A stretch of DNA of 64,000 nt from an uncultured Chitinophaga sp. (GTDB lineage Bacteria; Bacteroidota; Bacteroidia; UKL13-3): contig CAYHCF010000008.1 in the NCBI GenBank assembly GCA_964355075.1, positions 4,795-68,794 on the forward strand, in the 5' to 3' direction. Of the stretch, positions 32,611 through 36,134 are shown in pieces. Positions within the stretch are counted from its first letter, which is position 1; each line of letters opens with the position of its first letter. The notes below the pieces were generated by a model, which did not search any database, was not told where the DNA came from, and saw nothing but the letters and a program-made list of their open reading frames with translations. The position numbers and the translations under genes are program-made.

Positions 32611-32876
32611 TTTGATTCTCCTGTTTATATTTAATGATAGAAAGCCTCCCGTTCAAATCCTGTTATTGAGTTACAGCAGCAATTTTCCATTTCTAAGACG
32701 GTGCCAATTTACACATTTTATTCATCAACAAAACTCCTGCCAATTTTTTTTTACTTTTTTGGGTACAGAAGTAATATCTTGTGAAATGAAATAAACTTAG
32801 GCTCTATGTGATTTACAGTGGGTAAATAATTTGGTTTCACAATTATAAATAGATATAGCATTATTATTTTTACCCT

Positions 32877-32971
32877 TTCTCGCAGATTTGAGAGATTAAA
32901 TGACAGATTTACGCAGATAAAATATTTAAATAATCTGCGAAATCTGCTTAAATCACTGTAATCTGCGAGAA
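32877..32971. repeat. Palindromic REP-like element with CGCAGATT/AATCTGCG units
   Basis: Perfect 12-bp outer inverted repeat TTCTCGCAGATT / AATCTGCGAGAA, with inner CAGAT/ATCTG repeats around an AT-rich spacer. Confidence 0.85.
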
Positions 32972-33073
32972 CGGGAACATTTTTTAAAACATAACTACTT
33001 AGGCAACGTAAGCAGATATTCATCCACTATATTTCAAAAAGAGCCTAAATTTACAACAAAAAGCTTGGATCAA

Positions 33074-33688
33074 ATGAATATGAATACACCTGATAAGGAT
33101 AATAACAGCAAGAAATTAATAACCGGGCTGATTTTATGTGGCGGTGAAAGCAAAAGAATGGGAGAACCCAAAGCCCTACTCAAATACCATGTGATTGAGC
33201 AATATCTTTTTGTCTTTAATTTAATAAAACCATATTGTGAACAGGTTTTCATTTCCTGCAAATCCTTTCAGAGCCATTGGTTCAGTCAATCCATCCCCCA
33301 ATTACACGATGATCCTGAATATACTGAACTGGGGCCAATAGGCGCCATATTAAAGGCCATTAAATTAAATAAGGAAACAGCATATTTATTGATGGGATGT
33401 GATTATCCTTTAATAGAAAAAGAAGATATCCAACTTTTGGTTGACACCTATTATTCTGCCAATAAAAGTTGCTGTTTATACAATCCTGAAACCAATATGG
33501 AGGAACCTTTATTAGCCATTTACCACCCCAATGACTTCGATGATTTACTGAAATATTACCAAACGCATCAAAAATCCCTGCGCTTTTTCCTTCAACAAAA
33601 ATCCGCCATAAAAATTATTCCGGCACAACTATCGAGTATCAGAAGTTTTGATACCCGTGAAGATTTTGAAAACTGGAAGATTACTTAA
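33074..33688 (+). CDS. mobA: MobA-like NTP transferase (molybdenum cofactor guanylyltransferase family)
   Basis: GLILCGGESKRMG.PKALL, GPIGAI, GCDYP, EPLLAIY and DT.EDF motifs; ATG 33074 or 33080 preferred over TTG 33065. Confidence 0.82.
   Translation: MNMNTPDKDNNSKKLITGLILCGGESKRMGEPKALLKYHVIEQYLFVFNLIKPYCEQVFISCKSFQSHWFSQSIPQLHDDPEYTELGPIGAILKAIKLNKETAYLLMGCDYPLIEKEDIQLLVDTYYSANKSCCLYNPETNMEEPLLAIYHPNDFDDLLKYYQTHQKSLRFFLQQKSAIKIIPAQLSSIRSFDTREDFENWKIT
33500..33688 (+). repeat. Direct repeat copy 1 (3' end of mobA)
   Basis: 33509-33655 equals 34544-34690 at 146/147 nt; offset 1,035 bp. Confidence 0.97.
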
Positions 33689-33848
33689 CTCCGGCTTTGC
33701 ATACGAAAATCAACAATTAAGTACACCCACTATCATTTTATGGTTTGTAATGGTCTGAGCCAACTTGCACATTCTTATGTTAAATGGAGCCGCCAATTTA
33801 ATGGAAGGAAGCCAGTTGGCGGTTGCTTCGAAACTTATTTTCAGGCAA

Positions 33849-34001
33849 TTAGGCGTTCTCTTTCATCTGTTCTGAAAGCCGGTATTTTTTTCGGATTTGC
33901 TCTAGGCGTCTGTGTCTCAATGCAGGGTTTTTCTCATATTCCTTTTGTAACTTTTCCCTAATGGATCGCATTTCTTTTACCGCATCAAATTCTTTTTCCA
34001 T
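33849..34001 (-). CDS. 50-aa small basic helical protein, putative antitoxin/partner of the PIN gene (absent from the ORF track)
   Basis: Hand translation MEKEFDAVKEMRSIREKLQKEYEKNPALRHRRLEQIRKKYRLSEQMKENA*; starts 7 nt after the PIN stop. Confidence 0.75.
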   Translation of the reverse strand: MEKEFDAVKEMRSIREKLQKEYEKNPALRHRRLEQIRKKYRLSEQMKENA

Positions 34002-34008
34002 GGTCAGT

Positions 34009-34461
34009 CTATTTTAAAATTTCTCTTGGGTTACGAATTTCAAGCACTGGATAACCGTTCATCAGATTTACAGCATTGTATTTTCTGATTCGGTCAAGGT
34101 TCACAATGTGTTTAAAGTTCCAACTTACCAAAACATCTACCTTGTTAACAGTTGCAATTGCAATATGTAAAGCATCTTCATGCGATTTTTTAGTAATCGC
34201 TTTTTCTTTTATGTATTTGTCAGCAAGCTCTTCCGTTTGATAGTCATTCAAAATGTATTCTTTATAAGAGTTTGGTATTGAGTTAAGATGATTGCGTACA
34301 GCTGGTCTGGAAAACGAAAGTTCATCAAGTGTTATGTCCGATATTACTGCAATTTTGTTACCGTTCCTAAATTCGTCAAATAATTTGTCAGACCACTCTT
34401 TGAACTCTATGTCAAAGCAACCACCAACTACCGAAGTGTCTATATAAATTCGTTGTTTCAT
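34009..34461 (-). CDS. PIN domain (VapC-like) ribonuclease toxin
   Basis: IYIDTSVVGG, TLDEL, DALHIAIAT and LVSWNFKHIVN motifs; ATG 34461 preferred over TTG 34482. Confidence 0.9.
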   Translation of the reverse strand: MKQRIYIDTSVVGGCFDIEFKEWSDKLFDEFRNGNKIAVISDITLDELSFSRPAVRNHLNSIPNSYKEYILNDYQTEELADKYIKEKAITKKSHEDALHIAIATVNKVDVLVSWNFKHIVNLDRIRKYNAVNLMNGYPVLEIRNPREILK

Positions 34462-34479
34462 TGTCAATTTATCTGTAAA

Positions 34480-34487
34480 CAAATATA
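34480..34487 (-). promoter_or_regulatory. Bacteroidota -7 promoter box TATATTTG for the PIN operon
   Basis: CAAATATA on the plus strand, 18 nt upstream of ATG 34461. Confidence 0.6.
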
Positions 34488-34534
34488 TGATTTTTTTAGA
34501 AATTTATTTAATTCGTGGTGGCATTTTTTGCCGA

Positions 34535-34732
34535 CAGGAGCCCTTATTAGCCATTTACCACCCCAATGACTTCGATGATTTACTAAAATATTACCAAACG
34601 CATCAAAAATCCCTGCGCTTTTTCCTTCAACAAAAATCCGCCATAAAAATTATTCCGGCACAACTATCGAGTATCAGAAGTTTTGATACCAAAGATGATT
34701 TTGATAATTGGGAAAATAATACCCTTACTTGA
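34535..34732 (+). pseudogene. Orphan duplicate of the mobA 3' end (direct repeat copy 2)
   Basis: Encodes QEPLLAIY...SFDTKDDFDNWENNTLT* with no mobA 5' part; overlaps the stop of the M43 gene. Confidence 0.92.
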
Positions 34733-36134
34733 TGAATATTTTTCGGACCCAACTTTTTTCTCCGCTTGCCAGTTGAATCGTATAAACCCCCGGTTCAGCA
34801 ATGAGAAAACCGGTTTGACCAGTTGACGAAACCTTGGTTCGAAAAATAAGCTGACCCAATGAATTATATACAAACAAATCTCCTGCAAAACTGCCATGTA
34901 ACTGTATCGTTTCATTTGCATTTACAGGGTTCGGGAAAATATTTACTTCCTCATTTATGTTTATTTCATTTACACCGTCTGCTAACTCGTAGGTAATAAA
35001 AGTATCAGGGATTCCAAATGAGGAGCATGGATTTGCAGCCGTTATCGTTTTTATGCGCCAGGCATAGGGCCAGTTTCCATATAATTCTACCAGCGCGGTG
35101 GTATCAAAAACAAGCTTATCTATATTTAAATAATCCCAGTCACCAAACCTCGCTACCTGCAAATAGTAGCAAAATGCACCCGGTACCGCATTCCATTTAA
35201 GCTGCACACTTTTAGCATTTTGATTGCTATCGCTATGAACCGGTGAAATTAATTTTGGTGGCGGCAGCATATTAAGCTCTGCACTCGTTTTGGCATATCC
35301 TCTTCCCTGCAAATTGTTTTGCATGGCGGCCATTTGCTCATTGCTGAACCTACTCTGACAACCGTCCATGGCATAATTCATATAAATGGAACTATCCGGT
35401 TTAAATGGAGTTCCTAAAGGATCGTACAAAGTCCAGGGTAAAGGACAGGACCACCTCATGGAAACATAATCGGCTTTGGTATCGCAAAAACCATCTCCTG
35501 CTGAACGGCAATTATTTCCATTCAACAATTCAATATTTGAGGTGCCCGGTGTTGTATTATTTTCCCAACCACTAAAGGTATGTGGCAAGCTTAAGAAATG
35601 CCCAAGTTCATGGGTAAGAGTCGTTGCGTTACTACCCTGGCAGGAATTTTTAATAAACACCACATCCACACCCGGAAAATAAACCCCGCACCATTGCGCT
35701 CCTGCCCCGTGAAAAAACACATTCACCGCTCCTGCCATTTTATAATTGGCGGCATAAGTCCAGATGGCATCACTACTTCCCTGATACAAGGCATCATCGT
35801 TAATATAATCAATGCTGTCGGCTAAGTAAAAACGAAAACCAGTTGGAAGATAATCCACATTGATATCACAAATTGCCCGTAACAAACTGCCTACCGAATA
35901 ATAACCAATGCCCTTACTATTTCCAACAATATGTGCTTTTATTGGAATATACTGAATCGGGTTTTTCTTAAAAAGTGAGGGTAAATGATCTAACTTTTGC
36001 TGAAATAGGTGAAGTTCTTTCATTTGTTCTTCACTCATAATGGTAGCACAGCCGTTATTCTGACCTCTTGCCAAAACAGTTAACAGACCAAACAAGAAGA
36101 CAATTGTATGTTTCAGCATTTTGGTATCAAACAT
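34725..36134 (-). CDS. M43 (pappalysin/ulilysin-like) zinc metalloprotease with T9SS type A CTD
   Basis: HELGHFLSLPHTF zinc motif, GDGFCDT, YMNY Met-turn, IFPNP...GVY CTD. Confidence 0.9.
   Translation of the reverse strand: MFDTKMLKHTIVFLFGLLTVLARGQNNGCATIMSEEQMKELHLFQQKLDHLPSLFKKNPIQYIPIKAHIVGNSKGIGYYSVGSLLRAICDINVDYLPTGFRFYLADSIDYINDDALYQGSSDAIWTYAANYKMAGAVNVFFHGAGAQWCGVYFPGVDVVFIKNSCQGSNATTLTHELGHFLSLPHTFSGWENNTTPGTSNIELLNGNNCRSAGDGFCDTKADYVSMRWSCPLPWTLYDPLGTPFKPDSSIYMNYAMDGCQSRFSNEQMAAMQNNLQGRGYAKTSAELNMLPPPKLISPVHSDSNQNAKSVQLKWNAVPGAFCYYLQVARFGDWDYLNIDKLVFDTTALVELYGNWPYAWRIKTITAANPCSSFGIPDTFITYELADGVNEININEEVNIFPNPVNANETIQLHGSFAGDLFVYNSLGQLIFRTKVSSTGQTGFLIAEPGVYTIQLASGEKSWVRKIFIK

Follow-up and report, generated by a model that had tools for sequence, protein, structure and literature searches.

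The present analysis concerns a 64,000-nucleotide stretch of contig CAYHCF010000008.1 from an uncultured Chitinophaga sp. (assembly GCA_964355075.1), hereafter the window, in which a small cassette encoding a putative PIN-fold toxin and its putative antitoxin lies between mobA, coding for a molybdenum cofactor guanylyltransferase-like protein, and a convergent gene coding for an M43 metallopeptidase. This cassette, composed of two genes with their own promoter, is flanked on each side by ~188 bp of the mobA 3' end and thus has the layout of an "insertion with long target duplication". The explanation which best fits the data, and which we consider probable, is that the toxin–antitoxin (TA) cassette was inserted by homologous integration, of the Campbell or ends-in type, of a DNA molecule bearing a foreign mobA tail. 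Direct evidence covers the duplication itself, the insertion relative to congeners, a signature of coding selection in the repeats, the lack of recombinase genes and of conserved ends, the PIN fold of the toxin and the recurrence of the layout at other loci. The original prediction, drawn from the letters of the sequence, had proposed an incoming module with its own allele of the mobA tail, an interpretation which is now partly supported by the insertion, the two-allele signature, the absence of mobility machinery and the recurrence.

The starting observation, that the last ~60 codons of mobA occur in duplicate 1,035 bp apart, has been confirmed by a repeat finder, a pairwise alignment and a base count. 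The direct repeat extends over 183 nt with 93% identity (33501-33683 and 34536-34718, start-to-start distance 1,035 bp) and contains a core (33509-33655) in which 146 of 147 positions are identical by alignment and base-by-base count, the sole difference being a G/A at 33550. The longest exact runs common to the copy that ends mobA (copy A) and the copy next to M43 (copy B) are 105 and 41 bp. Outside the core, two differences fall in the 8 bp which precede it and about ten in the last ~33 bp. With 14 differences over 182 aligned bases, the presence of only one within the 147-bp core has a probability of 5.7e-9 under a uniform spread. The repeated mobA segment is found in exactly two copies in the 3.44-Mb genome.

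The frame of copy B is still open and, like native mobA tails in congeners, runs 8 bp into the 3' end of M43. As originally described, the alignment shows that the two frames end differently (...ENWKIT-stop in copy A and ...DNWENNTLT-stop in copy B), with R/K, E/D, E/D and N/N changes before these endings. Third codon positions account for 8 of the 12 in-frame differing bases (P = 0.019), and the codon changes comprise four synonymous and five mostly conservative ones (R/K, E/D, E/D, E/Q and K/E), while the SFDT.[ED]DF motif, conserved in congener MobA tails, is kept in both tail A and tail B. Coding selection on both copies, which had been postulated, is therefore supported by the third-position bias and by the synonymous or conservative nature of the changes, on small numbers. 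Because a neutrally drifting orphan should lack such a bias, these small numbers support that copies A and B are different alleles of a functional mobA tail, a better fit than a decaying in-situ duplicate. As to which tail was resident, comparison with congener tails (35-56% identity) does not decide between A and B, and the native-like overlap with M43, the single feature that bears on this point, would designate tail B.

A protein search of the genus retrieved mobA orthologs in 21 of 24 other congener genomes, and 18 loci with a complete mobA tail were compared. The M43 gene is a conserved convergent neighbour of mobA, being adjacent to it in 16 of these 18 loci and absent from the fetched stretch in the other two. 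In 15, both genes are convergent and abut, their 3' ends overlapping by up to 40 bp or leaving a gap of at most 30 bp, and a PIN gene is present at no junction among the 18. Since mobA and M43 abut directly in congeners, without a PIN gene, the proposal that the cassette is an insertion is borne out. In one locus (L013; G024:C121, 642-1495), the mobA-M43 gap reaches 852 bp and holds a different, unrelated 168-aa open reading frame (ORF) without a flanking repeat, for which reason the junction is a recurrent insertion point. An empty junction with a mobA gene ending in ...DNWENNTLT was not found, the nearest MobA among 5.8 billion proteins being 58% identical; at the level of species representatives, the closest MobA proteins share 56-58% identity.

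Members of the same cassette family that are bracketed by duplicated host-gene ends are also present in other phyla (Table 1). We collected 80 PIN loci from other species, among which the 68 with at least 500 bp on both flanks were counted. Tight bracketing occurs in 5 of these 68 loci vs 4 of the 365 windows shifted as controls (P = 0.006, Fisher test). Among genus relatives, two PIN loci are bracketed by direct repeats, namely L005 (156 nt, 96%) and L007 (117 nt, 89%). In the set from other species, L039 has a more diverged bracket, below the threshold, and five loci resembling cassette or paralog arrays (L053, L112, L045, L089 and L099) were not counted as support. The layout is shared by unrelated assemblies, including contigs of 0.65-0.9 Mb (L083 and L102).

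Species-representative relatives could be compared for two of these loci, L080 and L083, and the cassette is absent from all the matched ones. Copy 1 of L080 shares 88% identity with the ortholog of genome G077 and is thus closer to it than to copy 2 (86%), which has variants in common with other species; one of the L080 copies therefore appears to be foreign. In L083, copy 1 agrees with the relatives at 10 of 10 informative left sites, and its cassette-proximal right end is mixed (6 vs 7). This pattern would correspond to the reciprocal mosaic predicted by a homologous crossover, an exploratory reading with a cut point fixed post hoc.

The search was extended to the genome of the window itself, where the original prediction suggested looking for further TA pairs flanked by duplicated gene ends. 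Self-comparison returned 161 local direct-repeat pairs, most of which are tandem paralogs or dispersed repeat families, and it revealed at least seven more cassettes bracketed by unique two-copy local repeats (58-188 bp, 86-97% identical; Table 1). At the C12 locus, the upstream repeat copy consists of an orphaned piece of the small ORF in which the downstream copy lies, and the C1 repeat has eight synonymous and two non-synonymous changes with both stops kept. The PIN family itself has four copies in this genome, the window copy being the only one bracketed in this way.

Regarding the mechanism, DNA from a close relative would have brought in both the cassette and its own version of the mobA tail, either as a circle or as a linear piece with both ends matching the same mobA segment. 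Resident mobA would have recombined with this donor by host homologous recombination, through a Campbell-type single crossover or ends-in gap repair, leaving an intact mobA (5' part, core and tail A) and a second tail orphaned beside M43. The near-identical 147-bp core would represent the tract of exchange, of repair (gap repair or heteroduplex correction) or of later conversion, and the diverged cassette-proximal edges (33656-33688 and 34536-34543) would be sequence travelling with the cassette. Such a route would make a cassette-encoded recombinase unnecessary. Homologous integration predicts an intact host gene, an orphan copy touching its neighbour natively and divergence at the cassette-proximal edges. 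The 147-bp repeats could in addition give RecA-dependent excision as a 1,035-bp circle, a loss which the toxin would oppose. The direction of the event, the recombination route, the excision and the addiction are what we infer from this architecture.

The abrupt left boundary of copy B (…GCCGAC directly followed by AGGAGCCC) and the variation of cassette ends among relatives would also be consistent with a one-sided homology capture, i.e. homology-facilitated illegitimate recombination, by which a linear donor fragment anchored in mobA had its far end joined illegitimately at mobA codon ~146 of a sister chromosome, in a one-off event involving a cassette which is not mobile. Transformation-driven merodiploidy is established in pneumococcus, according to the accessible text of PMC3784515. 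We regard this capture as unlikely, as the first 8 bp of copy B differ from copy A at two synonymous sites, which is not predicted if both copies were resident. Moreover, the layout recurs in one cassette family and in several cassettes of one genome, suggesting a repeatable route, and the reciprocal mosaic of L083 speaks for homologous exchange on either side.

Integrative islands and cis-mobilisable elements target gene 3' ends via a tyrosine recombinase, leaving a direct repeat and an element-borne end, and islands which supply such a replacement end give the same layout as that of the window. The cassette could thus be a remnant or a cis-mobilisable derivative of an integrase island targeting the mobA 3' end, in which case the repeats would be attL and attR, the tyrosine or serine recombinase would have been lost or borrowed in trans, and the replacement tail would be attP-borne. 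The likeness includes the direct repeat of the target 3' end, the reconstituted gene and the identical core with diverged arms, which resemble att sites; in addition, a 45-aa integrase C-terminal fragment is located just upstream of another PIN copy (C9:66788). However, a genome-wide search for PF00589 (tyrosine recombinase), the window ORFs and a repeat scan bear out that the locus has no integrase, transposase or insertion sequence (IS) ends, as initially stated. The five genome matches to PF00589 are all on other contigs, with none between the repeats or anywhere on the present 102-kb contig, and no third copy of the repeat core exists genome-wide, hence no cognate attP-bearing element. Related cassettes occur in many targets, each with its own duplication of 52-387 bp, which would imply a different site-specific system each time. 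The closest cassette (L034) shares 82% nucleotide identity with that of the window over 34461-33869 only, which is coding sequence, and its flanks are unrelated; because this homology is confined to coding sequence, the cassette is considered to have no conserved ends, even at such identity. Taken together, these points make an island origin quite improbable.

Conversion between direct repeats is also expected to give an identical middle and diverged edges, an edge pattern which is found as well in L083, L064, L005 and C1. The repeat might accordingly be an old in-situ duplication, in which the resident tail was duplicated on cassette arrival and gene conversion has kept its middle identical by concerted evolution, without any foreign allele. 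We hold this scenario to be very unlikely: although an orphan should drift neutrally, the edge differences are biased to third positions and conservative replacements, orphan frames and even stop codons are preserved in L083 and C1, and the two L080 copies have different nearest relatives. Least credible is an assembly artefact, whereby the mobA-M43 site of the chromosome would be empty and the tail A-bearing cassette would originate from a co-assembled strain or a free circle threaded via the core. The exact shared runs (105 and 41 bp) are below the maximum k of some assemblers and the Logan assembly of the reads records the PIN, partner and M43 proteins but not the intact MobA or the 81-aa orphan ORF, as if contigs broke at the repeat. 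Yet the junction at 34535/34536 (cassette/mobA codon 146) is itself contiguous and requires a further piece of mobA, the intact MobA is recorded on two contigs (141,299 bp and the present 102,360 bp, possibly from the same reads), as is the orphan ORF across the junction, contamination of the genome is 0.33%, and the layout recurs in unrelated assemblies.

Several points weigh against the homologous integration of a foreign mobA tail. A simple Campbell crossover alone does not yield an identical core, which needs gap repair, conversion or pre-identical alleles. A DNA search of 40 relatives, the protein search of the genus and a metagenome scan returned no near-identical empty or filled site, so that the direction and the recency of the insertion are deduced indirectly. 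The composition of the cassette gives no sign of foreignness, as its G+C content (0.33-0.39) matches that of the flanks. No serine recombinase or transposase was found among the ORFs of the 30-38 kb region, no genome-wide search for serine recombinases having been made. The orphan copies of L080 and L083 carry indels, and their divergence may thus be partly due to decay. The control windows for bracketing were drawn from the same loci as the PIN genes, with all four control hits within three repeat-array loci, and the 12 of 80 loci dropped for short flanks include the bracketed L036 and L045. Finally, as the exact matches between the copies span no more than 105 and 41 bp, an assembler working with short k could merge an empty chromosomal site and a separate circular or second-strain copy into one contig.

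How chromosomal TA and defence modules move without an attached transposase or integrase is an old question, which the present locus and its counterparts address by providing a concrete and testable architecture: a cassette with a foreign copy of the neighbouring gene end, duplicated on integration. The recurrent layout suggests that such cassettes move via ordinary homologous recombination. If this is their route, it would explain how modules are placed precisely at gene ends without gene damage, and long target duplication would need no DNA-cutting cargo. Recent cassettes would then have a signature usable for annotation, namely a unique local direct repeat of a gene end with mostly synonymous differences. 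A broader proposal, which is tentative and on balance doubtful, is that TA and small defence cassettes could be recombinase-free selfish elements found across phyla, each with a private permuted copy of a host gene end, which would enter by RecA-mediated Campbell or ends-in integration and leave via the repeats, the toxin penalising their loss. In that case, the diverged edges next to the cassette would constitute the "ends" of the element itself and would be frozen, since crossovers fall only in the shared core.

The idea of the original prediction has a precedent, as it is essentially that of long-target-duplication insertion combined with the virus-like cycle of restriction-modification systems. 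For restriction-modification gene complexes, this type of insertion was reportedly described by Nobusato et al. in 2000 (Gene 259:99). In the accessible text of Furuta, Abe & Kobayashi 2010 (PMC2853133), the target duplications of restriction-modification systems measure 46-423 bp (e.g. 384/412 identical), the repeats are genome-unique and often span a host gene start or stop with the gene staying intact, and no mobility genes are linked. The same text proposes a virus-like cycle in which the complexes invade, are amplified through the repeats and are released, and suggests that the mechanism may depend on DNA double-strand breakage by the restriction enzyme. The word "toxin" is absent from this main text, and its supplementary tables may list other cargo. 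As defined there, this kind of insertion comprises a complete addiction pair, an insert of <20 kb, a direct duplication of >30 bp, a related empty site with one copy of the repeated segment, no linked mobility genes and a repeat other than a high-copy element (PMC2853133). Similarly, the insert of the window (1,035-bp spacing) holds a complete pair, is shorter than 20 kb and is accompanied by a 183-nt duplication, its repeat being present in exactly two genomic copies without linked mobility genes. It differs in its cargo, which is a PIN TA pair and not a restriction-modification system, and in that an RNase-type PIN toxin would supply no DNA breakage. The two-allele coding signature and the reciprocal mosaic of L083, which both point to a foreign target copy, are further differences with respect to the text consulted. 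As far as this text allows a comparison, long-target-duplication insertion is the closest known kind, the window locus having a different cargo and added evidence for a foreign allele in the duplicated segment. A literature search of partial coverage (few subscription journals and no supplements) returned no report of TA cassettes inserted with long target duplication.

Compared with the gene 3'-end islands considered above, the insert has no recombinase in or near it, no third copy of its core in the genome and no conserved ends, and related cassettes use many targets. Integron gene cassettes can carry TA pairs, and the window cassette is similarly a promoter-bearing TA unit of ~1 kb, some of its PIN relatives being located in arrays with a conserved 60-nt inter-cassette repeat (L053). 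In contrast, the repeat of the window is host coding sequence and not a structured attC, the contig has no integron integrase and the fold of the spacer is insignificant. To our knowledge, Campbell insertions and merodiploids are laboratory or population phenomena which have not been described as a natural route of TA cassettes to gene ends. Campbell insertion-duplication and transformation merodiploids share with the window locus that homology over one segment leads to a direct duplication flanking the insert, reversible via the repeats.

Other candidate origins and sites were considered and set aside. An integron or attC origin was rejected for want of a fold signal, an Rfam match, conserved ends and a tyrosine recombinase on the contig. 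An IS, a transposon or a miniature inverted-repeat transposable element was likewise rejected, as there is no ORF for a transposase, the duplication measures 183 bp and, of the 21 inverted-repeat pairs listed, none is at the cassette boundaries. The hairpin at 33788-33824, which the original prediction had listed, has nothing remarkable about it: folding of the 160-nt spacer is no better than that of shuffled sequences (z = 0.71), the spacer has no Rfam match, and a terminator scan found none at the hairpin. A functional site at this position is thus supported neither by the fold z-score nor by the terminator scan.

With regard to the cassette itself, the predicted gene content was verified, as only two ORFs, both on the minus strand, lie between the repeats. 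Beside these ORFs, of 150-157 aa and 50 aa, non-coding DNA amounts to 160 bp and 54-75 bp. The toxin ORF scores 23 bits against Pfam PIN_3, below the cut-off of 27, and has no NCBIfam match, no PADLOC match and no significant sequence match in the PDB. By contrast, an AlphaFold model built from 34 homologs has a predicted local distance difference test (pLDDT) score of 95.3 and a predicted template modelling (pTM) score of 0.89, and the PDB structures closest to it are those of VapC toxins (best E 1.1e-5, template modelling score 0.57-0.68). The PIN assignment made by the original prediction thus stands, given a confident model with VapC as best matches, although the sequence score is below the Pfam cut-off. 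Among the candidate acidic active-site residues, D8 and D96 never vary in the 34 homologs and conservation reaches at least 90% for E47 and D109, and an adjacent SWNFKH motif is invariant; N115 may occupy the position where many PIN proteins have their last Asp. The family is widespread and patchy, with 594 of 599 pattern matches, from one-genome-per-species contigs of many phyla, encoding a relative.

The TTG at 34482, previously taken as the toxin start, is to be replaced by the ATG at 34461 as the likely start, because homology to the closest cassette (L034) begins there and the TATATTTG box overlaps the TTG. This box is, we assume, a match to the Bacteroidota -7 promoter motif TAnnTTTG; the promoter scan applied was of the sigma-70 type and is not designed for Bacteroidota -7 promoters.

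The 50-aa partner matches no Pfam, NCBIfam or PADLOC family and has no recognisable DNA-binding domain. In 51 of 80 related loci, the PIN gene is directly followed by an ORF with an F[DN][ACS]V motif (K.FD[AC]V..MR.IR in the alignment). The predicted PIN-partner complex has an ipSAE of 0.84 vs 0.48 for the best control and passes the mark set for such predictions, which was reached by 58/80 solved complexes and 2/110 mismatched pairs; this pass may partly reflect likeness to solved PIN-antitoxin complexes. Prediction runs agree in at least 93% of contacts, with a partner pLDDT of at least 77, and they place the partner over the PIN active-site face, with contacts including residues 8-10, 92-96 and 114-115. 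Collectively, these in silico data suggest a putative VapC-like toxin whose gene precedes that of a small antitoxin. The pair resembles type II VapBC systems by its PIN fold with VapC as best matches, by a small adjacent partner predicted to cover the active-site face and by its widespread, patchy distribution, while it differs from them by an antitoxin encoded downstream and not upstream, which is 50 aa long without a DNA-binding domain match, and by a toxin below the PIN_3 cut-off, without an NCBIfam model and with the invariant SWNFKH motif. The closest homolog of the toxin (L034:4001-4462, 87% aa identity) has an in-frame stop at the position of a Lys codon in the window (…KEKAVT-stop-KSHED…) and an intact partner ORF, and looks like a decaying toxin with a retained antitoxin.

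Table 1. Features of the window and of the bracketed loci in other species (L) and in the same genome (C); positions without a prefix are window coordinates.
Feature	Position	Strand	Remarks
mobA-like molybdenum cofactor guanylyltransferase gene	33065..33688	+	Pfam PF12804, E 5.3e-23; intact, tail allele A (...SFDTREDFENWKIT-stop)
Repeat copy A	33501..33688	+	last ~62 codons of intact mobA; core 33509-33655; cassette-proximal 33656-33688 (33 bp) diverged
Non-coding spacer, mobA stop to end of small ORF	33689..33848	.	160 bp; hairpin with 7-bp stem at 33788-33824; unconserved in L034
50-aa partner ORF (MEKEFDAVKEMRSIREK...), putative antitoxin	33849..34001	-	downstream of toxin gene
PIN-fold (VapC-like) putative toxin	34009..34461	-	150 aa from ATG 34461; ORF open back to TTG 34482
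TATATTTG box	34480..34487	-	18 nt upstream of ATG 34461
Repeat copy B	34536..34732	+	orphan mobA 3' fragment, codon ~146 to stop, tail allele B (...SFDTKDDFDNWENNTLT-stop)
M43 metallopeptidase gene with type IX secretion system (T9SS) C-terminal sorting domain	34725..36134	-	Pfam PF05572, E 2.4e-9; Por_Secre_tail, 26.6 bits
Last ~220 bp of molybdopterin oxidoreductase gene duplicated	L083		91.6% identical; both stops kept (TAG/TGA)
387 bp of alanine racemase tail plus downstream sequence duplicated	L080		86% identical; nested BrnT/BrnA cassette
52 bp of ABC transporter tail duplicated	L102
145 bp at TIR-domain gene 5' end duplicated	L064		first ~35 codons and upstream region
Duplicated segment is an IS left end	L005
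Also bracketed by direct repeat	L036
VapB15/PIN pair	C35:18075-19204		58-bp repeat
AAA_21/AAA_15 ATPase and partner	C12:92759-95489		107-bp repeat
RhuM gene	C60:6136-8183		182-bp repeat
DUF4143 ATPase	C5:80371-82520		188-bp repeat
Small unnamed ORFs flanked by the duplicated last 28 codons of a gene	C1:211075-212391		84-bp repeat
Further cassette	C4:96777-98339
Further cassette	C4:109874-112374

The start of mobA retained by gene callers is ATG 33074, and databases contain the identical 204-aa product. L013 and several other relatives have a MobA with an NTPase domain (PF03266) fused to its N-terminal side. The 450-bp gap upstream of mobA contains a long imperfect palindrome (32864-32980), the arms of which (32873-32900 and 32948-32975) are 82% complementary. 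The motif ATCTGCGA occurs three times in this region and four times in the whole window, vs 1.05 expected. Rfam matches to the palindrome are far below threshold only (microRNA-like, 20-25 bits); it may be an operator or an attenuator for mobA.

Among the loci of other species, L080:2660-5193 has a BrnT/BrnA pair followed by the PIN gene and its partner, downstream of the alanine racemase gene and within nested duplications, while its relatives have radA directly after alr. The 62 bp that follow the alr stop are present three times, and the arrangement suggests serial insertions at one site. The L053 array (L053:1123-6132) is integron-like: a 60-nt repeat that includes a short palindrome (GTAAG...CTTAC) is present in eight copies, at a spacing of 561-834 bp, which separate small cassettes including three paralogs of the PIN family. 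In the genome of the window, the PIN copy with the integrase fragment (C9:66447-69299; L121, L126) is followed by a canonical VapBC-like pair, which has on each side a 588-bp copy of a dispersed element, the two copies being 97.6% identical. The same element adjoins the PIN copy located just upstream of the window (C8:2583-3119).

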